DNA of 64,000 nucleotides from Candidatus Liptonbacteria bacterium. Its GTDB lineage: Bacteria > Patescibacteriota > Minisyncoccia > UBA6257 > 2-01-FULL-56-20. The stretch's first letter is position 1, and every line of letters begins with the position of its first letter. The DNA lies in the NCBI GenBank assembly GCA_016204335.1, contig JACQKU010000011.1, positions 541 to 64,540 of the forward strand, in the 5' to 3' direction. The translations under genes were made by a program, and so were the position numbers. Below, in pieces: positions 6,942 through 63,806 of this stretch. Below the pieces are notes generated by a model, which did no database searches, was not told the DNA's origin, and saw nothing but the letters and a program-made list of their open reading frames with translations.

Positions 6942-7096
6942 CTTATACTTCAAACCTTATATTTCAAACCTTATATCTTATACTTCAAACCTTATATCTT
7001 ATACTTCAAACCTTATACCTTATACTTCAAACATTATACTTCAAACCTTATATTTCAAACCTTATACTTCAAACCTTATACCTTATACTTCAAACA
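6942..7096. repeat. Tandem repeat array, unit ACTTCAAACCTTATA(T/C)CTTAT with variable 12-21 bp units, about 9 copies
   Basis: Direct reading: cttatacttcaaaccttatatttcaaaccttatatcttatacttcaaacc... contiguous, no spacers. Confidence 0.85.
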
Positions 7097-8959: not shown

Positions 8960-9514
8960 ATGAGCGAAACGCAAAAAACTTCCCGCCTCGGCGGTCTTTT
9001 AATAACTTCGACATCCGCCTGGGGTTTCGTGTGGTTTGTGAACGGCAATTTGGTCGGCTGGATGGAGAATTCTTTATGTTTTAAATATCTCGGCTGTAAT
9101 GTCGGCTTTTTCGGCTACGACGCCCTTGTTCATTTTCTTGCCGGAATAATGGAAGCAGTGTTTATTCTTTGGCTCGCGAAGAAATTTCCGAAGTTCGATT
9201 TTTTCTCCCAACCGAATACCGATTCTCCTCTTACGGAAAAAAACTTCCTGAAAAACGCTGTCACGCTCATAGCATTGGTCGCGTTGCTGAGCATCGGCTG
9301 GGAATTTTTGGAATTCGGTTATGACCAAGCAAGGATAAATGTATTCCATCACGACCTGCTATATCCGACCAACAGTTTGCGTCAAGCGGGCAACGCCGAC
9401 ACAATGGGCGATTTATTTTTCAGCCTGCTCGGCGCCGCGATTATGACAGTCGCGCCGAAATTTTTCGATAAAAAGCGCCTGACGGCAAACGCCGATAACT
9501 TAGAAAATATCTAA
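8960..9514 (+). CDS. Hypothetical integral membrane protein
   Basis: 184 aa, several hydrophobic segments; ATG start; no recognisable family. Confidence 0.5.
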   Translation: MSETQKTSRLGGLLITSTSAWGFVWFVNGNLVGWMENSLCFKYLGCNVGFFGYDALVHFLAGIMEAVFILWLAKKFPKFDFFSQPNTDSPLTEKNFLKNAVTLIALVALLSIGWEFLEFGYDQARINVFHHDLLYPTNSLRQAGNADTMGDLFFSLLGAAIMTVAPKFFDKKRLTANADNLENI

Positions 9515-10260
9515 TCTCTCTTTTTCTTCCCTTTCCGCCAAGAAACTCCCCGAAGCAAAGACGCGTATAAATCGTCTTTTGGATTGATGGATAACTCTTT
9601 CACTTCGCTGGAAGACGGATTGCGCGTTTGAAAATGAACGAATGGAACGTCTTCGATAAGCGCGAGGGGGGTTTGCTCGTTCCCTTCTCCAATTGCGAGA
9701 ACCGCCGCGGCGGCAAGCCCTTCGCTTACATTCGCTTTCGTCATTTTTAATTTTCTGCGGAATATGTCCGGCTTGCCGATATAATCGTTCAATGCCGAGA
9801 ATCCGCTATGGGCAAGTACGGTGCCGGTGGTACCCCACCGGAGCGGAGAAGTTCTGCTGTCGGTTATAATCACGCCGATATTTTTCTTCTTAAACCTCTT
9901 TGTCAGATAAACGCGGATTTCGTTCGCCGTTCGCCGTGAATCGCGCGGCCAGAGAATGTACGAGCCGTTGCCGTTCGATTCATCGACTCCAGCCGAAGGA
10001 ATCAGCATATTGTTCTTGATTGTCAGGATAACATTATATTTATTTTGCTTGAGCGGCAAAAAATAATCGGCCTCTTCCTCGATTAATTTCGTCTTATCAA
10101 CCGAATCAACCGGCGCTATCCTGCCCTCGCAGATAGAAACGATTTTTGAAGTCACTGCGAGAATTGACCGCTCAGGAATTTTTTTTACATAGCGGTCCAA
10201 AATATCGCACAGCTTCCGCCCTGGAACAATTTTATCGGTTTTGATTGGAGTTATTTTCAT
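9511..10260 (-). CDS. CofE-like gamma-glutamyl ligase (F420-0:gamma-glutamyl ligase family, PF01996)
   Basis: KIVSICEGRI, GVDESNGNGSYILWP, GVIITDSR...LAIGEG segments align with CofE family conserved blocks (from memory of A. fulgidus CofE). Confidence 0.7.
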   Translation of the reverse strand: MKITPIKTDKIVPGRKLCDILDRYVKKIPERSILAVTSKIVSICEGRIAPVDSVDKTKLIEEEADYFLPLKQNKYNVILTIKNNMLIPSAGVDESNGNGSYILWPRDSRRTANEIRVYLTKRFKKKNIGVIITDSRTSPLRWGTTGTVLAHSGFSALNDYIGKPDIFRRKLKMTKANVSEGLAAAAVLAIGEGNEQTPLALIEDVPFVHFQTRNPSSSEVKELSINPKDDLYASLLRGVSWRKGKKKRD

Positions 10261-10276
10261 AATTTTGCTTTACCAA

Positions 10277-10310
10277 AACATTCTAACATTCTGCAGAATG
10301 TTAGAATGTT
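10277..10310. repeat. 34-bp perfect palindrome AACATTCTAACATTCTG|CAGAATGTTAGAATGTT (intergenic copy of the HSNILQNVRM palindromic element)
   Basis: Self-complementary; same core as in-frame copies in purB (26790-26821) and purL (31818-31849); central CTGCAG. Confidence 0.9.
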
Positions 10311-10316
10311 ATATTT

Positions 10317-20333: not shown

Positions 20334-20357
20334 GTGGTATGCTATAGCATACCACTC
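20334..20357. promoter_or_regulatory. 24-bp perfect palindrome AGTGGTATGCTATAGCATACCACT upstream of ahcY (putative operator)
   Basis: Self-complementary; shares GGTATGCTAT-GCATA core with the 41-bp repeats flanking the TrpR-like regulator. Confidence 0.5.
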
Positions 20358-20525
20358 ACAAACTCCCTTTCACCCTCACGCTCGGAGATTTCCCGTATTA
20401 TTAAACATAAAAAGCTACTTCATAAAATTCATATGTCCGGATGAACCTACCTCTGTATCTTGTTCACGTCCCGCGCTCCGAAAAACTTTAACACTATTGA
20501 CTATAAATTGACTATAATATGATGC

Positions 20526-20566
20526 CCGCTATGCCATAGCATAGCGGTATGCTATGGCATAGCGGG
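20526..20566. repeat. 41-bp palindromic repeat CCGCTATGCCATAGCATAGCGGTATGCTATGGCATAGCGGG, copy 1 (3' of regulator gene)
   Basis: Identical 41-mer also at 21112-21152; itself an imperfect palindrome built from GCTATG/CATAGC half-sites. Confidence 0.9.
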
Positions 20567-20574
20567 CGGAGAAA

Positions 20575-21093
20575 CTACTGTGGAATTGTAAACGTTCCGT
20601 ATTTTGTCCGCACCCTGCGTCCTGAAAAACCCCTCCCATTTCTCGACGACTGCGGGCCGGGCGAATATATTCTCTTCTTGCGTTCAGTTTTTCCCCGCTC
20701 ATAATAGCTCCTGTACTTTTTTTCGTTCAGCGCTTTTTTTATGCCGCTTATAGTCTGATGAGTAAGCCAAAGCTCTTCGCCGATTTTACGATAGCTCGTT
20801 CCTGCAAGAATGCGATCTATCGCGGCCGCCCGGCGCAGAAGAAGTGAACGCTCTTTGGCGGTAATAAGAAGTTCAAGTGCAGTCGAAAGTTTTTTCGGCT
20901 CTCGCAAAATTGTAAACTTTGCAATCAAAGTCCGCCAGACATTTTCTTCCCACGCTGAACGGGAAGAAAAACTTGCAAGGAGAGGTATACCACGAATCGC
21001 AGCCGCGGCCTCATTATTTCTCAGCTCTATTTTTTCTCCTGTTTTCTTCACGCGATTTTTTCTCCTGTTTTCTTCATCTCCTGTTTTCTTCAT
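20575..21093 (-). CDS. TrpR/YerC-family helix-turn-helix regulator with Lys/Arg-rich N- and C-terminal tails
   Basis: Central TAKERSLLLRRAAAIDRILAGTSYRKIGEELWLTHQTISGIKKAL resembles Trp-repressor/YerC HTH; 5' end contains three tandem copies of GAAAACAGGAG-ATG/GTG (RBS plus start); alternative in-frame GTG start at 21051. Confidence 0.6.
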   Translation of the reverse strand: MKKTGDEENRRKNRVKKTGEKIELRNNEAAAAIRGIPLLASFSSRSAWEENVWRTLIAKFTILREPKKLSTALELLITAKERSLLLRRAAAIDRILAGTSYRKIGEELWLTHQTISGIKKALNEKKYRSYYERGKTERKKRIYSPGPQSSRNGRGFSGRRVRTKYGTFTIPQ

Positions 21094-21111
21094 ATGATAG
21101 AGTATAGCATA

Positions 21112-21152
21112 CCGCTATGCCATAGCATAGCGGTATGCTATGGCATAGCGGG
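21112..21152. repeat. 41-bp palindromic repeat, copy 2 (immediately 5' of regulator gene start)
   Basis: Exact match to 20526-20566; ends 19 nt upstream of ATG 21093. Confidence 0.9.
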
Positions 21153-21201
21153 TAGCCCTGTATTCGGCAGTTCCGTGTTTGGTAGTTCCACGACTATAAT
21201 T

Positions 21202-21250
21202 CCATTGCTATAGTTCCATGGCTATAGTTTCCATTGCTATAGTTCCATGG
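21202..21250. repeat. Tandem 14-15 bp repeats CCAT(T/G)GCTATAGTT x4 at the 3' end of the PfkB kinase gene
   Basis: ccattgctatagttccatggctatagtttccattgctatagttccatgg; on minus strand each unit reads ATGGAACTATAGC (ATG...TAG mini-frame); overlaps stop codon of 21237..22226. Confidence 0.8.
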
Positions 21251-22226
21251 CTGACAGCTCCAAGGAAGGCAATTCCATCCCAAAACTCTCTTTGTAGCGA
21301 CTGCGCGCTTCGGAAAAAGAAATCCGGTATTCCTGCGTGCCGTATGCTTCGATGGCTCGCGCGGCGATGACGCCCGCGAACCGTCCCGCTGTTTCAAGCG
21401 GCCAGCCCGCAAGAAACCCTTTAATAAAGCCCGCGCGATACGCGTCGCCCGCGCCTGTCGGGTCAACGACATCCTTTGCCCGCGCCGGAGGCACCTTAAT
21501 TATTTTTTCTTTTGTCCGTACGCTGGAACCCTTTTCGCCGAGCGTGGTAATAAGAATTTCCGAACGCTCGAGCACATCTTCTTCCGTCCAGCCGGTTTTT
21601 TCCAAAACCAAAGCAAGCTCGTAATCGTTGGCGATAAAGACATTCGCGCCGGTTATTCCGTTCCGGATGTCATCCGGGGAAAGCGCGGGAATCTGCTGGC
21701 CCGGGTCGAAAATAAAAGGAATGTTCTTTTTCCGATACAGCGCGGGCAATCGGCGCATGTCGTCAATGTTTCCCGGAGCGATTACGGCAAACGAACCGGC
21801 CGGAATCTGCTCCTCTTTTATTCCACACGAGTGCGCCATCGCGCCGATGGAAAGCGCCGCAATCTGATTGTCGGCGCGGTCAGTCATAATATTCGAAAGA
21901 GTCGTGGGTTTGTCGGAAACTACATGGACAAAATCCAAACTTACTCCGCTCTTTTCCAGCCGCTCGCGATAATGCCCGAAATCCCTGCCGGCGCTCGCGA
22001 GTACCGCGGGTTTTTCTCCGAGAAGCGCGAGACCGTAAGCGATATTCCCCGCCGTGCCGCCGAAATGCTCGCGAAGATTTTCAGCGACAAAACTTAAATT
22101 CAAAGCATGAACTTTGCCGGGCATAATGTGGTCGCTGAAGCGGCCCGGGTATTCCATTATTTTGTCGTACGCGAGAGAACCGGAAACTAAGATGCGCATA
22201 CCGGATAGTATAACTCCAATAAACAA
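21237..22226 (-). CDS. PfkB-family carbohydrate/nucleoside kinase (ribokinase or adenosine kinase-like)
   Basis: GGTAGNIAYGLALLG and DPTGAGDAYRAGFIKG motifs of PfkB family; adjacency to ahcY suggests adenosine kinase role (inference). Confidence 0.8.
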   Translation of the reverse strand: MFIGVILSGMRILVSGSLAYDKIMEYPGRFSDHIMPGKVHALNLSFVAENLREHFGGTAGNIAYGLALLGEKPAVLASAGRDFGHYRERLEKSGVSLDFVHVVSDKPTTLSNIMTDRADNQIAALSIGAMAHSCGIKEEQIPAGSFAVIAPGNIDDMRRLPALYRKKNIPFIFDPGQQIPALSPDDIRNGITGANVFIANDYELALVLEKTGWTEEDVLERSEILITTLGEKGSSVRTKEKIIKVPPARAKDVVDPTGAGDAYRAGFIKGFLAGWPLETAGRFAGVIAARAIEAYGTQEYRISFSEARSRYKESFGMELPSLELSAMEL

Positions 22227-26085: not shown

Positions 26086-27576
26086 CTATAACTCTCCACT
26101 CGCAAGTTTCTCGGCCAATCCGACATAGCTCTCCGGCGTGATTTTAAGGAGTTCTTCTTTTACTTGCGCCGACACATCGAGCCCGTTTATAAACGCCCGC
26201 ATGTCTTCAATCGTTACTGTTTTGCCGCGCGTGAGTACTTTCAGTTTTTCATACGGCATCGCAACGCCCTCGCGCCTTAAAACTGTTTGAATCGCCTCGG
26301 CGATGACTTCCGGATGAAGGTTCAAATCTTCGAGAACTTTTTCTTTGTTCGCTTGGATTCGCCCGAGTCCGTTCAAAAGATTTGCGTAAGCGACAACGGA
26401 ATGCGCGAGCGCAACGCCGAAATTCCGCTCCACCGTCGAATCGGAAAGGTCGCGCTGGAGGCGCGATATAGGCAGTTTCGACGAAAAATAACTAAATAAC
26501 GAATTCGCAATACCTAAATTTCCTTCACTATTTTCGAATTTTATCGGATTTATTTTGTGCGGCATCGTGGATGAGCCGATTTCCCCTTCGTTCGCTTTCT
26601 GCGCAATCCAGCCGTCGCTGATGTAGCGCCAGATATCCTGATTGAAATCAATGAGAATCGTATTTATGCGGCGGAGTAAATCGAAAAGTTCGACGTATGT
26701 GTCGTGCGGTTCGATTTGCGTCGTGAAAAGATTCGGTTCGAGCGTTATGGTTTTTTTTTGATTTTGCGCGGCTCCGCCCGCACCGGACGACATTCTCACA
26801 TTCTGCAGAATGTGAGAATGTTCCCGCAAGCGTGTGACGAAATTTTTCGTGAAATCAAGCCAATCAACTTCAGGATACGCAACAACATTCGCGCTGTAAT
26901 TGCCGGTTGCTCCGTTCAATTTGACGAGAATGCGGAATGAACGCAGTTGCCCGATTTGCCGTTCCAACCGCGCGGCAAAAACCTTGAATTCTTTCCCGAA
27001 TGTCGTAGGAGTCGCCGGCTGGCCGTGCGTCCGCGCGAGCATCGTCAAATTTTTATATTCTTTCGCGAATTCCTCCAATTTCGCGGTTATTTTTTCGAGA
27101 AGCGGCAGAATCACTTTTTCGATTCCGTCGCTCAACATAAGCCCGTAGGCAAGATTATCAATGTCTTCCGAAGTAAGCGCGAAATGAATCCATTCAAGGC
27201 AGTCCTTGAGAGAAGTATTCTCCAACTGGTCGCGCATAAAATATTCTATCGCTTTCACATCGTGGTCCGTGGCTTTGATATTTTTATATCCCGCTCGCTC
27301 GATGTCTTTTATGATTTTTGCATTCTCGAGCGTAAGTTCGGAAAGATTTCGAATCAATGATTTTTCCTCTTCGGAAAAATCGCGGAGGCCTGCCCGCTCA
27401 CCAAAATTTTTGGTGTGAGGGCCGATGTCGGGATGCTCGGACAGCGCGATAAGATATTCCGCTTCGACAAAAAGCCGATAGCGCATCATTCCCGCCTCGC
27501 TGAAAATCTTCGCGAGCGGTTCCGTATATTCCCTATATCGCCCGTCAATCGGGCTTATTGATTCGAGAAAATTCAT
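26086..27576 (-). CDS. purB: Adenylosuccinate lyase carrying an in-frame palindromic-element insertion
   Basis: 496 aa; fumarate-lyase signature GSSTMPHKINPIKFEN; about 24 extra residues (REHSHILQNVRMSSGAGGAAQNQKK) between conserved FVTRL and TTQIEPHD blocks relative to E. coli PurB (from memory). Confidence 0.9.
   Translation of the reverse strand: MNFLESISPIDGRYREYTEPLAKIFSEAGMMRYRLFVEAEYLIALSEHPDIGPHTKNFGERAGLRDFSEEEKSLIRNLSELTLENAKIIKDIERAGYKNIKATDHDVKAIEYFMRDQLENTSLKDCLEWIHFALTSEDIDNLAYGLMLSDGIEKVILPLLEKITAKLEEFAKEYKNLTMLARTHGQPATPTTFGKEFKVFAARLERQIGQLRSFRILVKLNGATGNYSANVVAYPEVDWLDFTKNFVTRLREHSHILQNVRMSSGAGGAAQNQKKTITLEPNLFTTQIEPHDTYVELFDLLRRINTILIDFNQDIWRYISDGWIAQKANEGEIGSSTMPHKINPIKFENSEGNLGIANSLFSYFSSKLPISRLQRDLSDSTVERNFGVALAHSVVAYANLLNGLGRIQANKEKVLEDLNLHPEVIAEAIQTVLRREGVAMPYEKLKVLTRGKTVTIEDMRAFINGLDVSAQVKEELLKITPESYVGLAEKLASGEL
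26790..26821. repeat. 32-bp perfect palindrome ACATTCTCACATTCTG|CAGAATGTGAGAATGT inside purB, in frame (encodes HSHILQNVRM)
   Basis: Self-complementary; differs from copy at 10277 by a compensatory pair (A>C with T>G) that preserves the palindrome. Confidence 0.9.
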
Positions 27577-31386: not shown

Positions 31387-34300
31387 TTAGTAATTCGCAA
31401 ATGTTGATTTGTATGCGGCAAGAATTTCGGGAAGCGGCAGTTTCATATTTTTCTTTTTCCTTCGTATCACGATTTTTTCCTGTTTCACGACCGAGCCGAT
31501 TTTCGCAAAGCTCGTTCCGGTCATTAATTTCTCGAATTTCCGCATATTTTCCGGCGCGACTGTCGCGATAATTCTCCCCTGGCTCTCGGAAAAAAGAGCC
31601 GTAGTGTCATTCGAAAATTTTCCGGGCAGTTTTTTGAGCGATACATCAAACCCGAGTTTTCCTCCCATCGCGGTCTTGCACAACGCGACCGCCAACCCTC
31701 CTTTCGAAACACTGATTGCGGAAGCGACAATCCCTTCGCGGACGCATTTCGAAAACGCCCGATAGAGTTTTCTGTTTTTCGCCGCATCCACGCACGGCAC
31801 CAAACTGTCGCAAAACGACATTCTAACATTCTGCAGAATATTAGAATGTTTTTTGTCGTCTATAAGTGATGCATATTCACTTCCTGCCATCTCGTCGTAC
31901 GTATTACCGAGCGCGTACACCAAATCGCCCGGGCATTTTGCGTCGAGCGATACCGTTTTTTCGGCGTCAGGCACCACGCCGATAGCGGAAATAAGGAGCG
32001 TCGGCGGCACTGAAATTTTTACCGGCTTGCCATCTTCGTCATATCCTTTGAAATCGTTGAACATCGAATCCTTGCCGGAAATGAACGGCGTTTCATAAGC
32101 GACCGCATAGTCGTAACATGCCTGCGCGGCGCGCTTGAGCTGATATAGCCGCTCCGGCTCGTTCGAACTGCACCAGCAAAAATTGTCGAGAAGCGCGATA
32201 TAATCCGGGTCGGCGCCCGCCGCGACAGCGCTCCGAATCGCCGTATCAATCGCGCATGCCGCCATTTTGTACGAATCGATTTCAGAATATGAAGGAGCGG
32301 CGCCGGAAGAAAGAACAATCGCTTTTTTTGAATCCAAAAGCGGCCGCACGGCCGACGCGTCCCCGTTCACTCTGCCTTTGCCCTGGAGCGGCTTCAAAAC
32401 GGAACCTGCCTGCACTTCATGGTCGTATTGCATCGATAAAAATTCGTAACTCGCGATATTCGGGCGCGCAAGCATATTTTTGATTGCGAGCGAAAGGTCG
32501 CGCGATTCTGTTTCAGCCGCTGACATACCAACAAACTCCAGTTTATAAGGATGTGTTTCTTTGGTGGCGAGGTGGCGGCGGGGCCAGCCGTCGTGCAAAA
32601 ACCCCAAATCCAAGTCCATTATTTTCTTTCCGCGATAGTTCACCGCGCACTTTCCCGATGAAGTAAATCTGCCGATAACAGTCGCTTCCACTCCCCGCTT
32701 TTCCAATAGCGAATGAAGCGCCGCCCATTTATTTTTCGGCACGGCGAGCGTCATCCGCTCCTGCGATTCGGAAATCCATATTTGCCACGGCGCGAGTCCC
32801 GGATACTTCAACGGGACTTTATCGAGAGCGACTTCGCATCCGTTCGATTCGCGCGCCATCTCCGCCACCGAACACGAAAGGCCGCCGGCGCCGTTATCCG
32901 TGATGCTGTTATACAATTTTTTATCCCGCGCTTCTTTCACAATCGCGTCGCTCAATTTTTTCTGCGTGATTGGGTCGCCGATTTGCACCGCGGTCGCCGG
33001 GCTTCCCGAATCAATCGCCTCGGAAGAAAATGTCGCTCCGTGAATGCCGTCTTGGCCGACACGGCCTCCGACCATCACGATATAGTCGCCGGGCTTGGCT
33101 TGTTTTTTATGCGACGGTTTTCCGGCCACGGTCCGCGGAATCAAACCGACGGTTCCCGCGAACACGAGCGGTTTTCCGCGATACCTTTTGTCGAACAGCA
33201 TAAATCCCTGCGGCGTCGGAATGCCCGAGCAATTGCCGCCGACATTCACTCCTTGAATTACGCCTTCCATAATGCGCCGCGCCGAGAGAATTTTTTCCTT
33301 CCGTTCCGCGTCGCGGTAAAAAACGCTTTTGTCGCCCGTTCGACCGGGCTCAGGGCGACCCTGAGTGGAATCGAATGGGTCGCGCGGGTCGGCCCCTCGA
33401 CGCGGCTCGGGGCAAGCGAAGCAAAATCCGTAGACATTCGCCACCGGCTTCGCGCCCAAGCCAAACCCGACTGTATCGCGATTCACGCCGAGAATTCCAG
33501 TGATGGCGCCGCCGAACGGGTCAAGCATCGAAGGAGCGTTGTGCGTTTCCACTTTGTGCGTGACGAGATGCTTATCGTCGAACGCAATCGCTCCGGAGTT
33601 GTCGGTGAACACCGAAACGCAGAAATCGCGCCTGCCTTTCTTTTTGCGGATTACATTCGTCGCCGCTTTGATGTAAGAGCGGTAAATTCCGTCTTTTATT
33701 TCATCGATGGGATTCGCGAAAATCGTATGCTTGCAGTGTTCCGACCACGTCTGCGCGAGCGATTCCAGTTCTATGTCGGTCGGCTTCCGCTTTTGACCAC
33801 GGAAATATTCCCTGATTGTTTTCATACTGTCGAGGTCGAGCGCCAACGGGCCGCGGCGGCTTCCGTCCGGATTCGCTATTCCCTCTTTCCCGATGCATGT
33901 TAACTCGCTGTCGTCAACATCAAGGTTTACAGTACCGACCGACACCGACGAAACGAGCGCAACTTTCGGCGCGCTGATTCCCATGCCGCCGTCTTTTTTG
34001 AATTGTTTGAAACTTTTTATCTCCGCGCGCTGAATCAGCGGATTATACAGAGTGTCTGCGACGCGACGCGCGTCCTCTTCCGACAATTTTCCGGAAAGGA
34101 AAAAAACCTGCGAAGAATATGTTCCTTGCCCGCTTTTGAATTTTTTTCCTAAAAAATCCTCGATTGTTTCTTTCGCGGTCGAGCCGATATTGTCGGTGAC
34201 GCCCGGCAAATATCCGACTTCTATCGCCCAGTCGAATTTCGCCGGCGCCTGATTTTGATTTACGGTTGCGCGTTCCACAAGCGGATTCTCCAGAAGCCGC

Positions 34301-34467
34301 GCGACCGCCTGCAACTGCGAACTGGTAAGATTCGCGTCAATGATATACGAATCAACCAAATCCACGGATTTCACATTTCCATTGAAACCGATGCTTTCGA
34401 GATGCCGGAGTTTTACCGCGGCTCGAGTATCGGGAACTTTGTATTTTATATCGATACGGGCGGGCAT
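31387..34467 (-). CDS. purL: PurS-PurS-PurL fusion: FGAM synthase II with tandem N-terminal PurS-like domains and two in-frame repeat-element insertions
   Basis: 1026 aa; two ~85-aa PurS-like repeats then PurL core (ETHNAPSMLDPFGGAITGILGVNRD...); insertions at 31818-31849 and ~33335-33425. Confidence 0.85.
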   Translation of the reverse strand: MPARIDIKYKVPDTRAAVKLRHLESIGFNGNVKSVDLVDSYIIDANLTSSQLQAVARLLENPLVERATVNQNQAPAKFDWAIEVGYLPGVTDNIGSTAKETIEDFLGKKFKSGQGTYSSQVFFLSGKLSEEDARRVADTLYNPLIQRAEIKSFKQFKKDGGMGISAPKVALVSSVSVGTVNLDVDDSELTCIGKEGIANPDGSRRGPLALDLDSMKTIREYFRGQKRKPTDIELESLAQTWSEHCKHTIFANPIDEIKDGIYRSYIKAATNVIRKKKGRRDFCVSVFTDNSGAIAFDDKHLVTHKVETHNAPSMLDPFGGAITGILGVNRDTVGFGLGAKPVANVYGFCFACPEPRRGADPRDPFDSTQGRPEPGRTGDKSVFYRDAERKEKILSARRIMEGVIQGVNVGGNCSGIPTPQGFMLFDKRYRGKPLVFAGTVGLIPRTVAGKPSHKKQAKPGDYIVMVGGRVGQDGIHGATFSSEAIDSGSPATAVQIGDPITQKKLSDAIVKEARDKKLYNSITDNGAGGLSCSVAEMARESNGCEVALDKVPLKYPGLAPWQIWISESQERMTLAVPKNKWAALHSLLEKRGVEATVIGRFTSSGKCAVNYRGKKIMDLDLGFLHDGWPRRHLATKETHPYKLEFVGMSAAETESRDLSLAIKNMLARPNIASYEFLSMQYDHEVQAGSVLKPLQGKGRVNGDASAVRPLLDSKKAIVLSSGAAPSYSEIDSYKMAACAIDTAIRSAVAAGADPDYIALLDNFCWCSSNEPERLYQLKRAAQACYDYAVAYETPFISGKDSMFNDFKGYDEDGKPVKISVPPTLLISAIGVVPDAEKTVSLDAKCPGDLVYALGNTYDEMAGSEYASLIDDKKHSNILQNVRMSFCDSLVPCVDAAKNRKLYRAFSKCVREGIVASAISVSKGGLAVALCKTAMGGKLGFDVSLKKLPGKFSNDTTALFSESQGRIIATVAPENMRKFEKLMTGTSFAKIGSVVKQEKIVIRRKKKNMKLPLPEILAAYKSTFANY
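31818..31849. repeat. 32-bp palindrome ACATTCTAACATTCTG|CAGAATATTAGAATGT inside purL, in frame (encodes HSNILQNVRM), one mismatch
   Basis: Core 31819-31848 identical to intergenic copy except G>A at 31840. Confidence 0.9.
33335..33425. repeat. GC-rich palindromic element inserted in frame in purL (encodes CPEPRRGADPRDPFDSTQGRPEPGRTGDK)
   Basis: About 75% GC stretch with stems GTCGCCC...GGGCGAC and CTCAGGG-cga-CCCTGAG in a gene otherwise about 50% GC; region between PurL conserved MGAKP and GGNC blocks is about 35 aa longer than in B. subtilis/T. maritima PurL (from memory). Confidence 0.6.
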
Positions 34468-42739: not shown

Positions 42740-42744
42740 GTTAA

Positions 42745-42830
42745 AATGCAAATATCAAAATGGAAAATGACAGATAAAAATGTAAAAATTTTGAATTTTA
42801 CATTGTCATTTTGAACTTTGATTTTTAATT
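42745..42830. repeat. AT-rich inverted-repeat intergenic element, family 2 (copy 1 of 3)
   Basis: caaatatcaaaatggaaaatgacagataaaaatgtaaaaa...tttacattgtcattttgaactttgatttttaatttttga; related copies at 56149-56262 and 62685-62798. Confidence 0.7.
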
Positions 42831-43238
42831 TTTGATTTTCTTTATACGTTCTGCAATTTCACGGATTGTTTCTTTCGGCTGATTATCGACCACTGAATGG
42901 ATTGAACCGCCGCCGTCATTTTGAAATCGCGGAATGATATGAATATGAAAATGCTCAATGGTCTGGCCGCTCGCTTTGCCCTGATTGATGCCGATTGTAA
43001 ATCCATCCGGCGCAAGAACCTTCTGCAATAATTTCGTCACATTCCTGACTGCGGAAAAGAGCGGCGCAAGTTCGCCTTCTCCCAAATCAAGAATGGTTTC
43101 GGCGTGTTTCTTCGGCATTACCATGCTGTGCCCAAGGGCAATCGGATGAATATCAAGTATCGCGAACGCGCCGTCATCCTCATAAATGATTTCTGACGGA
43201 ATCTCCTTATTGCCGATTTTGCAAAAGAGGCAGTCCAT
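42825..43238 (-). CDS. HIT-family nucleotide hydrolase
   Basis: Histidine triad HFHIHIIPR. Confidence 0.85.
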   Translation of the reverse strand: MDCLFCKIGNKEIPSEIIYEDDGAFAILDIHPIALGHSMVMPKKHAETILDLGEGELAPLFSAVRNVTKLLQKVLAPDGFTIGINQGKASGQTIEHFHIHIIPRFQNDGGGSIHSVVDNQPKETIREIAERIKKIKN

Positions 43239-43243
43239 AATTT

Positions 43244-43355
43244 TAGAAATTGGTTGTTAGAAAATAGATATTGGTAATGTAAAATGGAAATTAGAAATTA
43301 ATTGATTTTCTATTTTCCAGTTTCTAATTTCTATTACTATTTTCCAATTTCCAAA
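43244..43355. repeat. AT-rich inverted-repeat intergenic element, family 1 (copy 1 of 2)
   Basis: gaaattggttgttagaaaatagatattgg...attttctattactattttccaatttccaa; second copy 54843-54929 with same termini. Confidence 0.7.
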
Positions 43356-50048: not shown

Positions 50049-53000
50049 CTACTGTACCAATCCCACGGCATTAATCGTGATTGTGGAAGTGGCCACGACC
50101 GTCCCGTTGTTGCTCGCCAAAGGATTGTAGGAATAAACATCGCCGCCGAATATGTCCGCCGCCAAGTTGCTTGAAGGATATGTCGCAGTCGGCGTTCCGG
50201 CGCAGGTTGAGTTCCCTGCCCATACTGCAACGCTCCCGCCGCCGGAATCGTAATCGACCGGCACTTGCCCCGAATAAGCGGAGATGTCCAACGTTGAAAG
50301 GGTTCCGCAAGAGATGACCGTGCCGGCGCTGTTCCGAACCGCCCACGAACCGCCTGCCGGCAAGCCGTTCAACGTAATAATCGGCGAGCTGTAAAACGCG
50401 AAATTGTCGTATGTCATAGTGACGCCGCCGGCGGCGGACGATGCCGCAAGCCCCAAAAATCCCGCTTCGGAAAGCGAGAAATCCGCGGTGGAAAGCGCCG
50501 CGCCGCCGTTGACCCACGACTGGAGCGATGTGCCGGAAATATAGCCGCGGAACTGGTAAAAAGTGTCCGCGGCAAATGTAAACGCCGAAGAGATAATCGT
50601 TCCGTATGAAGAGGAAATTGTCTTGCCGATTAATTCCGCGCCGTTTTGGAAATCGCCGCCCGCAATATGATATTTGTTCGCGCCGCTATCCGCGCGCAAA
50701 ACACCGCCGTTTTTTCCCGCGCTTGCTCCAACCGCGCTCGCTTTCATTTTAAACTCAATTACCCCGTTCGTCCGGTTCTGGCCTGCAACGTGAATCTGCG
50801 CCGAAGAACCGGAAGCGGGCGTCACCGCAAGCCGGCTCGCGGAAACGCTCCAGCTTCCCGAATCCGTCGTAAAGGCGCCGGAGGTTGTCGTGAAACCGTT
50901 GCACGTTCCGGAATCCGTGAAAGTATTGAACCCTGCGGGGTCCTTTGCCGAGGCCTTCCAGTAATACGTCGTGTTCTGGCTCAAGGCGTTTTGCGCCGTG
51001 TAAGTCCCCTGCGCGCCAGAAGCGTAGCAGTCGTTCGCGCTCACGCATGTCGCGTTCTGCCCCGACCAGCCGGTTTGCGATACGCTTTGGTCGTTTGTTT
51101 GAAAAACGGCGGTACACGCGGAATTCGAATAAATCGTCACTTTATATTGCAGATTATCCGAATTAATGTCTGTAGCCGTCATTTTAAAAACCGGCAAGAC
51201 GCTTAAGTTTTGCGAGTCGTTTGCTGGAGAGTCCTGTGAAGGCGGGTTCGGCGGGCTGCTTGCCGCGCTGGTCGTCACGCTGGAACTCGCGCTATACGGC
51301 CCGTCGCCGGAAGCGTTCGTGGCGCGTATGCGGTAGTAGTATGTCGTTCCGGGCGCAAGCCCGCTGTCGTTCGTGGAGGTGTTCGTTATGCCGGAGGCGA
51401 TCTGCGCGAAAACCTGGCTCGAAGTGGCTCTTTCGACTTTATACGAAGTTGCGCCTCCGGCAGGCGCGGCCCAGTTTACGGTAAGTGATACCGCGGAAAC
51501 ATTCTCATAGGCGGGAGTTCCCGGAGTTCCAGGCACGGTCATCCCGCTTCCCGCCGCGTTCAATGCCGTCTCAATCAAATCCTGGTTTCTCGATTTAACT
51601 TTGAACGCGTAGGTGGCGTTTGATTGAAGATTTTTTATTTGCAGAGTATCGAGCGTGGCATCCGACATCCAAACGGCCGCCGTGCTCGTAGCTCCGACAG
51701 ATGTCACCCAAAAACCCTGCCAGTTGGGGTCGCTCGGACTCGTCGATGAAGTGAAGACGGCGAACTGGGTTGTGGGAGAAGATGCCGGGTTGCCGTTCTC
51801 GGCGTTTGTGAAATTGAGAGTGGAAGTTGTTGTTAATGAAAAGGTTGCTGTTCCGGGAGTATTGGCAAGCGTGTAGATAGAACTCGAAGCGGAAGCGGTG
51901 CCGGTGTTTGGAGTTGGAGAGACGGAATCCCTCGCCTGAACTTGATAGGCGTAGCACTTGTTGGCTTGTAGATTGGAGTTTGTGTATGAGGTTGAAGTTT
52001 GCCAGTTTGATGACGCTCCTCCTGTGCCGCCGTTCGATGAACAAGTATTAAAAGTGAAAAGATAGTTTACGGGCGTAGTAGAATCGGAGCCGGTTGTGGC
52101 AGTCATGGAAATTGATGATGTGGATGCCGCGGCTGGAGCGGACGAAAAAGTCATCGGGTTCGGAGTTGGAGGAGATGCGTCTAGTGTCGTGAACGAAACC
52201 TCGCCGCCGTATGAATACCCCGCGCTGTTATGCGCGTATGCGCGGGTGTAGTAGGTGGTACTGCCGGTGAGTCCAGTCAGCCCTTTGGTGTATGCCCCTG
52301 CGCCGAAAGCTCCCGCGTCGCTCGCTGAACTCGCGTAGCCAGAGGAACCCGGCGCGACGTTGCCGGGCAAAGCACGCGAGGCGGTATCATAAACAAAACC
52401 TCTTGTATCAGCATTAGCCCCGCCTGTAGCCGTGATGTTGCCGTTGCCAGTCGCGGTTGTTGCGGTGATAGATGAAACGGCTTGGGTCGTGACGGTGGGA
52501 AGATTCGCCAACGTCGTGAACGAAACCTCGCCGCCGTATGAATACCCCGCGCTGTTATGCGCGTATGCGCGGGTGTAGTAGGTGGTTGCGGCATTCATGC
52601 TATTGAGTGTCGCCGTGAAGGCACCTGTCCCAAAATCACCGGCGGTGATAACAACGGACTCATATCCAGAGGAATACGTGGGGACGTTGCCAGGCAAAGC
52701 ATGCGATGTGGTGCTGTAGACAAAGCCGCGCGAATCCGCATTCGCTCCTCCTGTAGCCGTAATGTTACCGTTGCCGGTCGCGGTTGTTGCGGCGATGGAT
52801 GAGGCGGCTTGGGTGGTGACGGTCGGGACGGTGACGGAGACCGTGTAAGTGAGGACGACGCGCCCGGCGGCGCCGGCGCCACCATTAACAGCGAGAGCCG
52901 CGCCCCCGCCACCCCCACCGGGCGCATTTCCTGGCCCGGCGGCACCACCACCGCCAGTCCCACCGCCACCCCCGCCATTTCCTTCTCCTATGCCACCAGT

Positions 53001-54842: not shown

Positions 54843-54929
54843 GAAATTGGTTGTTAGAAAATAGAAATTGGAAATTTGAATTTGGTCAACTATTTTCTAT
54901 TACTATTTTCCAATTTCCAATAACTACTT
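54843..54929. repeat. AT-rich inverted-repeat intergenic element, family 1 (copy 2)
   Basis: Shares 5' GAAATTGGTTGTTAGAAAATAGAAATTGG and 3' TATTTTCTATTACTATTTTCCAATTTCCAA termini with 43244-43355. Confidence 0.7.
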
Positions 54930-54935
54930 TCCACT

Positions 54936-56147
54936 TTAGAATTGACCGGTCAGCTGATAAATCGGCACGATGATGGCAAGCGCGATTACCGCGACCAATA
55001 TACCCATAATGAGAAGGAGGACCGGTTCGAGAAACGAAAGCAAGGAATGTATGCTGGATTCCACGCTTGACTGGTAAAAATCAGCGAGCGTGGAAAGAAC
55101 CTCCTCAAGATGTCCCGCTTTTTCGGAAATGGCGACTAAATTCGTGACGACTTTCGGAAATGCCTCTTCGCGGCGAAACGCCTCTCCGATTGTAAGGCCT
55201 TTTGCCAGGCCTTCGTTCGCGACCCTCATCAAGCTCGTCCGGAATTTTTCCGAACCGACGACTTCCGCGGTAATGGTTGCCACATGAATAATCGGCAGGC
55301 CGGCCGCCATCAGCGCGCTGAATGTGGAAGCAAATCGTTGAATCGCTATGTCCCGGTAAATTTTTCTGACGAGAGGCAAACGGGAAAGCATCTGGCTCAT
55401 AACCCGCCGCCCCGTGGCATTTTTCCAAAAAAAGTAAGTCGCAAACCCGACAACTGAAATCAGAATGGAGGCCAGAACGACAATATTGTCTCCTATAAAA
55501 AGACCGGCGGTGAACACGACTCTTGAAAAAAGCGGCGGCTTTATGTCGGTTTGCAGAAAAGCGGTGGCGATTTTCGGCAGCGCGAACGTAACCAGAAAAC
55601 CGATGATGACAACCGACATCGCCGAAAGAATAATCGGATAGACCAGCGCCGAGCGAATCTTACCTTTTAACTCGGCTTCCCGCTGGAGCGAAACGCTTAA
55701 GTCCTCGAATGTTTGCTGGAGATTGCCGGACGTCTCGGACGCCTTCACCAGATTGATAAACACGACTGAAAATACTTTGGGATGCTCCGCAAAGGTCTGA
55801 TAAAACGGCCTGCCTCTTGTAAGATTTTCCCGTATCTCGAGAAGAAAGGTCTTCATTGCCGGCTTGTCGAAATCGGCTATCAGGATATTGACGGCGGACA
55901 AAAGGTCGGTCCCCACCTTAAGCATCAGAGACAAATACTTGGTCAGGAAAATTTTATCGGTTGTGTTGATGTCTTTGGAGAACCTGCTGCGGGACGTACG
56001 CAGGGGTTTTACCGAAAGCGGACGCATCCCTTTTGCCACGAGGTACTGAAGCGCCTGATTCAGATTGTCAGCCTCCAGCTGGTCTTCCGTGATTTTTCCG
56101 TTTTTGTCGGACGCGGAGTAGTGGTACAACATAAATTTAAAAATCAA
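54936..56147 (-). CDS. pilC: Type IV pilus / T2SS platform protein (PilC/GspF family)
   Basis: 403 aa, two T2SSF domains, 3 TM. Confidence 0.85.
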   Translation of the reverse strand: MIFKFMLYHYSASDKNGKITEDQLEADNLNQALQYLVAKGMRPLSVKPLRTSRSRFSKDINTTDKIFLTKYLSLMLKVGTDLLSAVNILIADFDKPAMKTFLLEIRENLTRGRPFYQTFAEHPKVFSVVFINLVKASETSGNLQQTFEDLSVSLQREAELKGKIRSALVYPIILSAMSVVIIGFLVTFALPKIATAFLQTDIKPPLFSRVVFTAGLFIGDNIVVLASILISVVGFATYFFWKNATGRRVMSQMLSRLPLVRKIYRDIAIQRFASTFSALMAAGLPIIHVATITAEVVGSEKFRTSLMRVANEGLAKGLTIGEAFRREEAFPKVVTNLVAISEKAGHLEEVLSTLADFYQSSVESSIHSLLSFLEPVLLLIMGILVAVIALAIIVPIYQLTGQF

Positions 56148-58272: not shown

Positions 58273-58869
58273 TTACAAGTCGAGTTTCGTCCCAGTCTCG
58301 TAGATGGTGGCGTTGTTGCCGCCGTCAGTTGATTCAATGTCGGAAGAGCCACTTGTATACTTGGTGCTTTCCATATTGGCGTTAATCTCAAACTGGTAGT
58401 TCGGCGCCGCGTTTGTGGCATAGCTGTAGAAGTAAGTGGCGTTATTCGAAGGGTCTACGGGCTCGGCGCCAATCGGGGAGCCTGCGCTGATACTGCCAAA
58501 GTTAATCGGCATCCAGCCACCGCCGGCGATTCCGGTTGCAAGGGCGGCCGTGGTCGTCACAGTACCCAATGTCGCCGTCATCCTGCCGCCACAGCCCGCG
58601 CCACCCGGCGTTAGGACCGCTGAACCGTAGCAAGTGCTCGAAGCCCCGATAGCATTGCCGGCCGGAGCGGCGGCATCCGCCAATAAAAGCGATATCGCGC
58701 TTTTGATAGTCGCCATATCGGATATTCTGCTTGAATCGCGCGCCTGGGCAAGAAGCTGAGCGGGGTTAAGGGTTAAAATGACGACAACCGCCAAAACCGC
58801 GATAATCGCAATCACCACCAAAAGCTCTATCAGTGTAAATCCTTTTTGTTCTATGTTGTTTTTACTCAT
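58273..58869 (-). CDS. pilA: Type IV major pilin
   Basis: Canonical prepilin leader KGFTLIELLVVIAIIAVLA. Confidence 0.85.
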   Translation of the reverse strand: MSKNNIEQKGFTLIELLVVIAIIAVLAVVVILTLNPAQLLAQARDSSRISDMATIKSAISLLLADAAAPAGNAIGASSTCYGSAVLTPGGAGCGGRMTATLGTVTTTAALATGIAGGGWMPINFGSISAGSPIGAEPVDPSNNATYFYSYATNAAPNYQFEINANMESTKYTSGSSDIESTDGGNNATIYETGTKLDL

Positions 58870-58870
58870 T

Positions 58871-58936
58871 TTTTTATGGTTTATGACCTTTTATTTATGG
58901 TTTAGGACCTTTATTTTTTATGGTTTATGACCTTTA
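58871..58936. promoter_or_regulatory. Three tandem 21-22 bp direct repeats (TTTATGGTTTATGACCTTTTA) immediately upstream of pilA
   Basis: tttttatggtttatgacctttta / tttatggtttaggaccttta / ttttttatggtttatgaccttta; about 2 helical-turn spacing. Confidence 0.6.
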
Positions 58937-59234
58937 TTCGCGTTCGTAAATTTCTCACAGATTCAATTGAGAAGATTATATCATATTAAAAAAGAGGTTG
59001 GTTGTGGATAACTCCGCTTCGGTTTTCGTTTTGCCAGGCGCGGCCTCTGCCTCCCTGCAGGCAGGCAGAGCTCCGGCGGCGAGGCGGCCTGTATCCCTGC
59101 CTGCCGGCAGGCAGGTCGGCGAGCAAATCGCCTGCGGCGATATCAAGCTTGCTCCCCTCCGATAACGCCCGGCAAAACGAAAACCTGCGCTATTGGCGGA
59201 CAAACTTCTGAGCTTACAAGATAATTATATATTG

Positions 59235-61852: not shown

Positions 61853-62693
61853 TTAACAAATTTTCAAGCTGAAGCCGGGGATTAAGATTCAAGTGGTCGG
61901 TATTCCGCCGTAAGTCAAGAATCTTGTGCCACAATTTGAGATTGATTTTTGCGGGAATTTCTTTATTTGAAAGAATCATCAAAAGGATTTCCAGAAATTC
62001 GCTAAGATTGAAATCATCCGGCTCTATAAGAGTTTTTATCATCTCGCGGCGCGCCCAAAACCCGGATTTGAGAAACGCTTCGCCGGATTTTCGCATCTCG
62101 CGAAACCGTCCGTCAAAAAGCATTTTCCAGGCAAGCCCCGGCTGGCCCGACGACAATTTTGCGATTGCTCCGGCTTCTTGCCCCTTGCCGAATTTTTCTT
62201 TGAGCCAATTCTCGATAAGCGCGGAATGAACCGGTGAAAAATAGATTTTCTGGAGCCGCGATTGAAGCGTCGGTAAAAGTTTTTCGGGGTCGCGGGCAAC
62301 GAGAATCAGAAGCGAGGATTCCGGCGGTTCTTCGGCGACTTTCAAAAGCGCGTTTTGCGCTTCCACGGTCATTGCTTCGACATCGTTGATAACGACCGTT
62401 CTTTTTTTGCTTACAACCGGCTTTTGCCACAAAAAATTCCTGATTCGGCGGATTTCGTCGATTCCGACGGTTCCTTCCTCATTCGGTTCGAGCAATAGCG
62501 AGTCACGGAGCATATTCGATTCTTCAAAATCTCCGGTTTCAAGAAAATTCGCGAAAGAAAGAGCGAAAAGCTTCTTGCCTGCGCGGGCGGGTCCGCAGAA
62601 AAGATACCCGTGCGAAAGTTCGTTTCTTTCGGCAAGACCTTTGAAATCTTCAACCAGTTGTTCGTGGCCGATTAACATAAATTCAAAAATCAA
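61842..62693 (-). CDS. holB: DNA polymerase III delta-prime subunit-like AAA+ protein
   Basis: LFCGPARAGKKLFALSFANFL P-loop-like, clamp-loader box, 283 aa. Confidence 0.7.
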   Translation of the reverse strand: MIFEFMLIGHEQLVEDFKGLAERNELSHGYLFCGPARAGKKLFALSFANFLETGDFEESNMLRDSLLLEPNEEGTVGIDEIRRIRNFLWQKPVVSKKRTVVINDVEAMTVEAQNALLKVAEEPPESSLLILVARDPEKLLPTLQSRLQKIYFSPVHSALIENWLKEKFGKGQEAGAIAKLSSGQPGLAWKMLFDGRFREMRKSGEAFLKSGFWARREMIKTLIEPDDFNLSEFLEILLMILSNKEIPAKINLKLWHKILDLRRNTDHLNLNPRLQLENLLNEV

Positions 62694-62798
62694 ATATCAA
62701 AAATAAAAATGACAAATCAAAATGTAAAAATGAATTTTATCGTTTGGGCTTTTTGCATTTTACATTTTCATTTTGCACTTTGATTTTTACAGTTTGAT
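62685..62798. repeat. AT-rich inverted-repeat intergenic element, family 2 (copy 3)
   Basis: aaaatcaaatatcaaaaataaaaatgacaaatcaaaatgtaaaaatg...cattttgcactttgatttttacagtttga; near-identical 5' arm to copy at 56149. Confidence 0.7.
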
Positions 62799-63806
62799 TT
62801 ATCTTTTGTTCAGTAATGTCTGCTTATATTTATCCAAATGCTCGAGAATCAGTCCGGTTCCTTTGGCGACGCAAAAAAGCGGATTTTCCGCGACATAGGT
62901 GGAAACGCCCAAAAACCTTTCGAAAAACTCCGGCAAGTAGTGAAGCTGGGCGCTGCCTCCCGAAAGAATGATTCCTTTTTCCATTATGTCGGCGACGAGT
63001 TCCGGCGGCGTGACATTGAACACGTTCTGCACCGAGCCGGCGATTTCTATCAGAAACGGATTGAGCGCTTCCGCTATTTCATTGCTGTTGATAACAAGGT
63101 CTTTCGGCAATCCGGTAATAAGATTCCGGCCGCGGAACTGGTATTCCATTTTTTCTTTAGAGGGCAGGGCGGCGCCGATTTCGATTTTTATGTGCTCGGC
63201 GGTTTGTTCTCCTATCGCAATCGAATATTTTTTCTTAACGTAATCGGCAATTGCCTGGTCGAATTTATTGCCGGCAACCCGCAAGCTCGTCCACGAAACA
63301 ATGTTGCCGAGCGCGATGACCGCCACTTCGGATGTGCCGCCGCCGATATTGATGACCATATGGCCGGAACGCGCGTTGATGGGAATGCCTGCGCCGAGCG
63401 CGGCTAGAACCGGTTCGCGGACAATGAACGCGTTCCGCGCGCCTCCTTCAAGGGTCGCGTTGACGACAGCGCGGCGCTCTGTCTGGGTAATGCCCGCAGG
63501 AACCGAAACAATCACATCCGGTTTGAAAATATTTAGGCGGCCGACCGCCTTTGCGATAAAATAAGTGAGAAGCGCTTTGGTGATATAGTAGTCCGCGATG
63601 ACGCCGTCTTTAAGCGGCCGGTACGCCATGATTTCTTCCGGCGTTCTGCCGATCATTTCCTTTGCTTCCACGCCGACCGCAAGCACCGAATTATGCGGTT
63701 TTCTAAGAGCCACAATGGTCGGCTCGTTGATGATAAACCCTTTGCCAGGCACGAACACCACTGTATTCGCCGTCCCCAAATCAATGCCGATTTTACGAGT
63801 GAGCAT
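62799..63806 (-). CDS. mreB: Rod shape-determining protein MreB
   Basis: IGIDLGTANTVVF, actin-fold phosphate loops. Confidence 0.9.
   Translation of the reverse strand: MLTRKIGIDLGTANTVVFVPGKGFIINEPTIVALRKPHNSVLAVGVEAKEMIGRTPEEIMAYRPLKDGVIADYYITKALLTYFIAKAVGRLNIFKPDVIVSVPAGITQTERRAVVNATLEGGARNAFIVREPVLAALGAGIPINARSGHMVINIGGGTSEVAVIALGNIVSWTSLRVAGNKFDQAIADYVKKKYSIAIGEQTAEHIKIEIGAALPSKEKMEYQFRGRNLITGLPKDLVINSNEIAEALNPFLIEIAGSVQNVFNVTPPELVADIMEKGIILSGGSAQLHYLPEFFERFLGVSTYVAENPLFCVAKGTGLILEHLDKYKQTLLNKR

Follow-up and report, generated by a model that had tools for sequence, protein, structure and literature searches.

A palindrome inserted in frame in purB and purL of a Candidatus Liptonbacteria genome is probably the cognate site of a small ArsR/SmtB-like winged-helix protein of the Candidate Phyla Radiation

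Palindromic DNA that enters genes has been described in Rickettsia, where Rickettsia palindromic elements (RPE; "selfish DNA in protein-coding genes of Rickettsia") of ~100–150 bp occur between genes and, in frame, within housekeeping genes; no transposase is known for them. Repetitive extragenic palindromes (REP) and the related REPINs are strictly extragenic, flank the gene of an HUH/Y1 transposase (REP-associated tyrosine transposase, RAYT), reach hundreds of copies and carry a GTAG-type 5′ motif. Other palindromes are protein-binding sites. The operators of ArsR/SmtB regulators have a 12-2-12 layout and lie over the promoters of the regulators themselves; CIRCE is a long inverted repeat conserved over distant lineages via its conserved binding protein, HrcA, and stays at chaperone promoters; and AspA of the Sulfolobus plasmid pNOB8, a winged-helix centromere-binding protein of ~90 residues, recognises a palindrome that precedes its own gene. 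Much of bacterial diversity belongs to the Patescibacteria (the Candidate Phyla Radiation, CPR), which encode few regulators and are hardly tractable. Here, we describe a palindrome, ACATTCTNACATTCTGCAGAATGTN'AGAATGT, present in three copies in a 64-kb stretch of DNA from a Candidatus Liptonbacteria metagenome-assembled genome (MAG). This stretch is referred to below as the window, and all copy coordinates are in its numbering. One copy is intergenic, one is in frame in purB and one is in frame in purL. We consider it probable that the palindrome is the cognate site of a CPR-wide, ArsR/SmtB-like winged helix-turn-helix (wHTH) protein of 88–95 residues, and that the copies in the window are orphans that were spread by insertion and kept where they are tolerated.

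The positions given for all three copies in an earlier note on this DNA are right. Copy 1 (10277–10310), a perfect 34-bp palindrome (AACATTCTAACATTCTGCAGAATGTTAGAATGTT), lies 16 nt upstream of the ATG of an F420-ligase-like gene (9511–10260, minus strand), in a 56-nt spacer (10261–10316, minus strand) between two minus-strand genes. Copy 2 (26790–26821), a perfect 32-bp palindrome, lies inside purB (26086–27576, minus strand), which encodes an adenylosuccinate lyase of 496 residues, and is read there as HSHILQNVRM (EHSHILQNVRMS). Its two differences from the other copies, A>C and T>G, are exactly complementary (N/N′ = C/G), so that the compensatory nature ascribed to them holds. Copy 3 (31818–31849) lies in purL (31387–34467, minus strand), which encodes a formylglycinamidine ribonucleotide (FGAM) synthase of 1026 residues, and is read as HSNILQNVRM (residues 874–883; KHSNILQNVRMS). 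The palindrome had been called perfect in both purB and purL, and copies 1 and 2 are indeed perfect; the 32-bp copy 3 has one mismatch, between 31827 and 31840, which is C·A on the plus strand and a G·U pair on the mRNA strand. No strand is assigned to the copies themselves, and both open reading frames (ORFs) translate the palindrome as (E/K)HS(H/N)ILQNVRMS. The 16-nt core of the palindrome has three matches in the window, compared to 0.21 expected, and three matches were reached in none of 100 shuffles.

Two samples show the palindrome outside the window. One genome per species was scanned with the form of the palindrome that has CTGCAG at its centre (ATTCTNAYATTCTGCAGAATRTNAGAAT), which gave at least 118 loci from at least 90 assemblies. 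The carriers listed include Saccharibacteria, Paceibacterota, Lipton-, Nomura-, Kaiser-, Jorgensen-, Doudna-, Moran-, Taylor-, Wolfe- and Brennerbacteria, and others. The second sample consists of 83 loci that were picked via the wHTH protein alone (3 by exact look-up, 80 from metagenomes) and is unbiased for the palindrome. In this protein-anchored sample, the general form is A(C/T)ATTC(C/T)-N-A(C/T)ATTCT-NN-AGAAT(G/A)T-N-(G/A)GAAT(G/A)T, that is, four ACATTCT-type heptads arranged as 15-2-15, with an overall length of 32–36 bp. The heptad positions are near-invariant, while N, the centre and the flanks vary. Inverted arms around a 2-bp centre are also found in the 12-2-12 operators of ArsR/SmtB regulators, and we count this agreement in favor of a protein-binding site.

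The home locus of the palindrome is a small cassette. Pairs of copies 300–400 bp apart enclose a conserved gene of ~90 codons, and the wHTH family that it encodes is the sole family recurring near the palindrome among the matches listed (36 of the 118 loci, in 30 cases within 150 bp). In the protein-anchored loci, a copy is centred 24–131 nt upstream of the wHTH start codon in 79 of 83 cases, with modes at 33 and 42–48 nt, and a copy overlaps the wHTH stop codon or lies just past it in 69 of 83. These loci contain 188 palindromes of the family, compared to 2 in shuffled sequence. The stop codon falls inside the palindrome, either as TAA/TGA at N (the protein ending in ...KTF) or as TGA/TAA at the centre (...TFxHS). 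An extended −10 element, TGnTAnnAT, starts within a few nucleotides of the right edge of the upstream palindrome (e.g. GTGGTATAAT or GTGATATGAT), and the ATG of the wHTH gene often follows it by only 6–10 nt, implying a leaderless transcript. A protein bound to the upstream palindrome would cover the −35 and spacer region of this promoter, which is the autorepression layout well known from ArsR/SmtB regulators.

The wHTH family comprises at least 863 clusters, with a mean column identity of 74% across CPR classes and a nearly invariant recognition helix. Against PF01022 (HTH_5; cut-off 22), one member scores 26.8 bits and another 20.9, and the match to the NCBIfam model NF033788 (ArsR/SmtB) has an E value of 7.5e-12, under the family cut-off. 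The predicted model (pLDDT, predicted local distance difference test, of 94) has its best fold matches in SqrR, SmtB, CadC, CzrA, HlyU, MarR and AspA. Membership of the ArsR/SmtB family is thus borderline by sequence and clear by predicted fold. Searches with PHROGs and PADLOC returned generic wHTH matches only.

These features suggest the following mechanism, in which the palindrome is most probably the operator of the wHTH gene. The four heptads in their 15-2-15 arrangement would provide room for two wHTH dimers. The cassette would be read in the order palindrome, extended −10 promoter, leaderless wHTH gene and second palindrome over the stop codon, with the upstream palindrome acting as an autorepression operator and the second serving as a looping partner site or controlling the following gene as its operator. 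The orphans in the window would be short insertions of 36–63 nt, copied from resident copies of the same genome, that persist only where they are harmless, in intergenic spacers and permissive protein loops, and the tolerated reading frame would be the one that is always open and encodes the hydrophilic HSxILQNVRM. The window's own genome very probably encodes the wHTH protein on another contig, as judged from adjacent accessions: MBI4086112.1 (wHTH P0230) is 143 NCBI accessions after the window PurB, MBI4085969.1. The earlier reader did not see the canonical cassette because the wHTH gene lies outside the window.

An architectural role is kept alive, as a reading that may apply, by the closeness of the wHTH model to AspA, on which it superposes best, with a root-mean-square deviation (rmsd) of 1.6–1.7 Å over 71–72 alignment columns. 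The palindrome would then be a chromosome-organising or segregation site, centromere-like or bound by a nucleoid protein (compare AspA/pNOB8, parS, matS and Noc), whose position with respect to genes would be unimportant. The sites are indeed palindromic, few per genome, clustered by the wHTH gene and tolerated in ORFs, and a conserved regulon is absent. However, likeness to AspA is generic for small wHTH folds, and the ArsR and MarR matches equal or beat AspA by E value. No ParA/ParB-like partner recurs beside the wHTH gene, and the promoter-operator geometry is sufficient to account for the cassette copies. We regard this explanation as improbable.

The surroundings of the cassette are variable. 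The protein-anchored loci share no conserved housekeeping context; their neighbors (L122–L204) are mostly genes typical of variable islands, including, at 14 of 83 loci, one for a DNA methyltransferase, as well as DpnI/Mrr/NERD nucleases, DUF559-like proteins, thermonuclease, NYN, RadC, Fic/RhuM, Pif1 helicase and PhD/ParE. A family of ~147 residues occurs as close as 71 nt to the cassette, on either side, in L201 (2228–2671) and five related loci. Its members contain an in-frame HSDILENVRM, which is the peptide of another dialect of the palindrome (see below), after a hydrophobic N-terminal region, and their C-terminus appears winged-helix-like by eye. In L122 (10265–10400), just past the wHTH stop codon, a palindrome appears to be split into arms ~110 nt apart (ATATTCTTATATTCTGCACCC ... 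GGGCAGGGAATACCAGAATAT), with a further palindrome of the family in between, as though a copy had entered the centre of another.

The copies in the window are genuine in-frame or intergenic insertions, as had been proposed. A syntenic relative, L119, whose PurL is 77% identical to that of the window, has the same gene order and zero copies in 21 kb. All three palindromes are absent from it, and they are therefore insertions rather than ancestral protein sequence. At site 1, the two genes of L119 overlap by ATGA, and thus the entire 56-nt spacer of the window is an insertion. In purL, 17 codons (31801–31851, minus strand) replace 5 codons of L119; the net gain of 36 nt is the size of one 12-codon palindrome unit, AAA-CAT...ATG-TTT. 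The purB insertion (26764–26826, minus strand; residues 251–271; REHSHILQNVRMSSGAGGAAQ) consists of 63 nt in frame, the palindrome plus a G+C-rich tail, and interrupts the empty site of L121, which has the closest PurB (80% identity), precisely at its TTG/AAT junction. The insert is therefore 21 residues long, by comparison with both the closest relatives (80–83% identity) and the empty-site DNA, and the earlier figure of about 24 extra residues needs to be reduced. No target duplication is seen when the filled and empty purB sites are compared.

The purB insertion site was expected to be a surface loop, and the alignment and the structural model both place it in a loop. The alignment of the window PurB with PurB chains in the PDB (E = 1e-133) breaks precisely at the insert, other CPR PurBs have unrelated insertions at the very same loop, and residues 259–273 have pLDDT values below 50 in an AlphaFold model, from which we take the site to be a permissive loop. 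The G+C-rich tail of the insert encodes SSGAGGAAQ. A second, unrelated insertion in purL (33334–33414, residues 352–378) is also G+C-rich, a low-complexity segment (CPEPRRGADPRDPFDSTQGRPEPGRTG) at a position where L119 has only ADPR.

Three further explanations, that the peptide is ancestral protein sequence, that the copies are assembly artefacts, or that they are DNA uptake signals, are refuted by these and the following results and deserve almost no weight. An HSxILQNVRM-type motif occurs in 2 of the 120 best PurB homologues, at differing sites; the second protein, P0008, has HSHILENVRM at a position unlike that in the window PurB. The element is present in hundreds of assemblies produced independently in many laboratories, and the site-1 junction is reproduced in two Logan assemblies from other sequencing runs. 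Both of these contigs, which are from the same organism (L207, 2031–2060; L208, 939–973), stop inside the palindrome, the usual behaviour of k-mer assemblers at such sequences; the element thus fragments k-mer assemblies. Uptake motifs of the DUS/USS type (DNA uptake sequences/uptake signal sequences) occur roughly once per kb genome-wide. The window has 3 copies in 64 kb, or ~1 per 21 kb, the heptamer is not enriched in it outside the three palindromes, and at other loci 203 kb of distal flanking sequence contained no copy; an uptake signal was rejected.

Between the window and the listed loci, DNA similarity is limited to the palindrome itself, and conservation stops at about ±19 from its centre. 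Among the matches listed, ~12% of the CTGCAG-form copies are inside real ORFs. The host genes, about 15 other housekeeping genes in all, include those for TsaC, MnmA, YchF (at two different sites), PrmC, an FAD oxidase, TsaD, two glycosyltransferases, Pgk, AtpG and TpiA; the "host ORF" of L105 is likely spurious. The PrmC copy is at an identical site in two species. In YchF of L034, and probably in PrmC, native residues were replaced without a change in length. Of 16 in-gene copies, 15 are read as HSxILQNVRM (P = 8e-7, against an expectation of one-third). This frame is open for every N, whereas the second reads ILTFCRMLEC and the third has stops if N is A or G; the frame bias can thus be accounted for by peptide-level selection. 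Some contigs with the palindrome are in bins labelled Gammaproteobacteria, Kiritimatiellia, Verrucomicrobiota or Pacearchaeota (L022, L023, L036, L044, L048, L049, L076, L082, L102, L105, L106, L110, L111 and L116). These bins are probably mislabelled or contaminated, and some of their contigs also carry the wHTH cassette.

The centre of the palindrome is not fixed. In the protein-anchored sample, 109 copies have TG/CA as the dinucleotide, 60 have GC and 12 have TA, and AT is also met in other genomes. A CTGCAG (PstI) centre, which had been taken as a defining feature, is one dialect among several, and self-complementarity of the centre is not required. The peptide of the TG dialect is HSxILENVRM, as in P0008. 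Within a locus, copies agree in their centre more often than expected (79% vs. 44%), and where upstream and downstream copies have the asymmetric TG centre, it is mostly in the same orientation (33 vs. 13). Both observations are compatible with a site-specific recombination site with a 2-bp crossover, as in serine-recombinase sites, of which the wHTH gene would be the mobile cassette and the orphans the empty sites, although the concordance is not specific to this model. The lack of a conserved cassette neighborhood would also fit. However, no transposase or recombinase family recurs near the cassette or the orphans, as judged by clustering of neighboring genes, and recombination between existing sites cannot make a new site in purB. 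Since ArsR-type operators explain the 2-bp centre equally well, we give this possibility little credence.

The sequence variation bears on how copies arise and what maintains them. Among near-perfect copies, N is complementary in 125 of 135 (93%), with all four pair types represented, and the flanks are often symmetric out to about ±19. Symmetry at N falls to only 47–61% in the unbiased sample. This difference suggests that copies start out, or are homogenised, as perfect palindromes and later decay at positions that are not contacted. Perfect palindromes may be regenerated if copying proceeds via a hairpin or template switch, or if one copy converts another. Copies differ by 4.2 positions per 38 nt within an assembly and by 6.2 between assemblies, and private variants are shared within an assembly; L124, for example, has three copies of a private dialect, ACACTCYAACATTCTTAAGAATGTTRGAGTGT. 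In the two PrmC orthologues (52% amino acid and 57% nucleotide identity), 33 of the 36 palindrome bases are kept. Synonymous third positions match in 8 of 9 cases within the palindrome, compared to 54% elsewhere, and two of the three differences form a compensatory change from a C..G to a T..A pair, at the cost of a V-to-I replacement. The PrmC comparison supports a constraint that acts on DNA rather than on the peptide. The earlier proposal of selection on DNA or RNA structure is therefore borne out for DNA only, since on the sense strand G·U is no commoner than A·C (22 vs. 30).

Several of these properties would be expected of a selfish repeat, similar to REP or RPE, that is mobilised in trans, either by an enzyme whose gene lies elsewhere or through replication or repair in the host (hairpin or template switch). 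The wHTH gene would then be flanked as RAYT is by REPINs, or would encode a host factor that binds or tames the repeat. Such a repeat accounts well for the filled and empty sites, for independent insertions at different sites of one gene family (PurB in P0001 and P0008; YchF in L034 and L035), for lineage-specific expansions of up to 6 loci per MAG among the matches listed, for the greater likeness of copies within a genome than between genomes, and for symmetry even at free positions, as if copies were born perfect. Orphans that lack a promoter context and a cassette that sits among variable-island genes (DNA methyltransferases, nucleases, toxin–antitoxin modules, Fic, RadC) also fit. It is less easily reconciled with the absence of any transposase or HUH gene recurring nearby and of a target-site duplication, for which no consistent excess of 2–6 nt direct repeats was found at any assumed boundary, with 0 matches to the palindrome among 2.9 million viral contigs, or with the fact that most sampled genomes seem to hold just the cassette copies and a few neighbors. 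Heptad conservation across the superphylum is more readily explained by a protein-binding constraint than by a repeat that runs free. The two explanations overlap and differ in whether spread or regulation is the reason for the existence of the palindrome; we place the selfish repeat at slightly below an even chance.

The vehicles usually associated with mobile DNA were tried and rejected. A classical miniature inverted-repeat transposable element (MITE) or transposon lacks both a target-site duplication and a recurring transposase or recombinase, and no terminal structure was found beyond the palindrome itself. A phage or plasmid vehicle was likewise dismissed, given the lack of viral-contig matches and the merely generic wHTH matches in PHROGs and PADLOC. 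Full-text searches and a review found no literature on the palindrome sequence, its peptide, or REP-, MITE- or RPE-like elements in CPR. The suggestion of a new family of coding-tolerant mobile elements therefore has to be recast: the palindrome is a CPR-wide site rather than a genome-specific element, it is tolerated in coding regions, and its mobility, with neither duplication nor transposase, is still presumed.

A role at the RNA level was also considered, in which the palindrome would terminate transcription (an intrinsic, bidirectional terminator), be cut by RNase III or stabilise mRNA as a hairpin. The predicted hairpin is substantial (14–15 bp, −18 to −20 kcal/mol, z about −5 to −6), copies in spacers are mostly past gene ends (72 co-directional and 16 convergent, vs. 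8 divergent), and the flanking sequence is rich in A to the left and in T to the right. However, the strand-specific signals of an RNA element are missing. In addition to the lack of a G·U excess, TTTT follows the stem on the sense strand in 18 of 72 cases, while AAAA precedes it in 27 of 72, and asymmetric centres do not follow the direction of local transcription (8 vs. 11). A terminator within purB or purL, or 16 nt ahead of a start codon in an operon, would do harm. No Rfam family reaches its gathering score in the 64-kb window, in which no tRNA gene was found either. An intrinsic terminator was rejected, as the predicted hairpin comes with neither a U-tract preference nor a G·U bias, and we consider an RNA-level role of any kind to have a small chance of being correct.

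The following points weigh against the operator interpretation. An adjacent −10 element is not enriched at orphan copies (12% vs. 8% in controls), and no target gene family near or around them is conserved across lineages; the orphans are thus unlike a classical regulon. Their distances to start and stop codons are uninformative because the spacers are short. In the protein-anchored loci, extra copies are all within 4 kb of the cassette, with none in the 203 kb beyond, and therefore the three orphans in 64 kb of the window, which lacks a cassette, point to a lineage-specific expansion. Protein binding alone leaves unexplained why the non-conserved N should be complementary in near-perfect copies and why the flanks should be symmetric to about ±19. 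Finally, a 32-bp operator cannot arise within a gene by point mutation, and a copying mechanism must therefore exist.

A bolder proposal can also be made. The wHTH protein and its 15-2-15 palindrome may form a transcription factor/operator pair that acts as a self-propagating element, whose site has been copied repeatedly, including into housekeeping ORFs, via a hairpin or template-switch route, and whose copies are held by selection at the DNA level as decoys, roadblocks or chromosome-organising sites. We regard this proposal as rather unlikely as a whole. If true, REP-RAYT, MITEs and RPE would be joined by another kind of repeat, one whose dedicated partner protein is non-catalytic. On our preferred reading, of a cognate wHTH site with tolerated orphans, the orphans could likewise function as decoys, roadblocks or architectural sites.

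The window contains other repeats. A second, unrelated long palindrome (core TATGCCATAGCATAGCGGTATGCTATGGCATA) occurs at 20524–20567 and 21103–21155, and also at 20337–20352. It brackets a minus-strand ORF of 172 codons (20575–21093), the C-terminal part of whose product appears HTH-like by eye; a small gene bracketed by its own palindrome is the architecture of the wHTH cassette. An intergenic tandem array at 6942–7095 has a 7-nt period (CTTATAC, ~21 copies; alternative periods of 14, 21 and 35 nt). Intergenic short tandem repeats (14/29 and 21–23 nt) and A-rich imperfect inverted repeats are located at 21183–21262, 58867–58938, 62685–62807, 42743–42833, 43237–43351 and 54844–54937. A G+C-rich stretch at 52186–52828 consists of two tandem repeats of a 327-bp unit with a 77% match.

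The palindrome and its partner wHTH protein, which is ~70% identical across the superphylum, would be one of few candidate regulatory or architectural systems common to Patescibacteria. The in-frame copies represent a second, independent case, after Rickettsia, of palindromic DNA colonising housekeeping proteins, and the candidate binding protein makes the entry of palindromes into genes approachable by experiment. In practical terms, the palindrome breaks k-mer assemblies and adds spurious HSxILQNVRM segments to protein families, and it may serve to mark misbinned CPR contigs.

The comparison of the palindrome with Rickettsia palindromic elements, made in the earlier note, is a fair one. As in Rickettsia, copies are both intergenic and in frame, the host genes are intact, and the insert in PurB lies in a permissive loop that is modelled with low confidence. 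The two differ in size and host: the CPR unit is 32–36 bp, compared to ~100–150 bp, and is distributed over the Patescibacteria superphylum rather than one genus. The CPR palindrome also has a fixed frame and peptide, and it brackets a dedicated, conserved gene for a DNA-binding protein. This bracketing is reminiscent of the REP/RAYT system, as the repeat flanks a single-copy gene on both sides, is also dispersed, and has genome-specific copy sequences. However, the flanked gene encodes a winged-helix protein of 88–95 residues without a catalytic HUH/Y1 domain, there is no GTAG-type motif, and the copies, which also occur in ORFs, number tens at most rather than hundreds.

With ArsR/SmtB regulators (SmtB, CzrA, CadC, HlyU and SqrR), the system shares the fold and family of the protein, inverted arms around a 2-bp centre, and an operator that abuts the −10 element of its own gene. 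It differs in its longer arms (15-2-15, with two heptads each), in the second copy on the stop codon, in the absence of cysteines or of an obvious ligand-sensing site from the aligned wHTH sequences as inspected by eye, and in orphan sites that are inserted in coding regions and define no conserved regulon. The near-identity of a long inverted repeat across very distant CPR lineages recalls HrcA-CIRCE, but the CPR copies are found at unrelated loci and inside genes. AspA is also a small winged-helix protein and gives the closest superposition on the predicted wHTH model, whereas the CPR gene is chromosomal, is distributed superphylum-wide and has no adjoining partition ATPase or adaptor. The CPR palindrome is thus similar to RPE in its invasion of ORFs, to REP/RAYT in its bracketing of a gene, and to an ArsR operator at its home locus.

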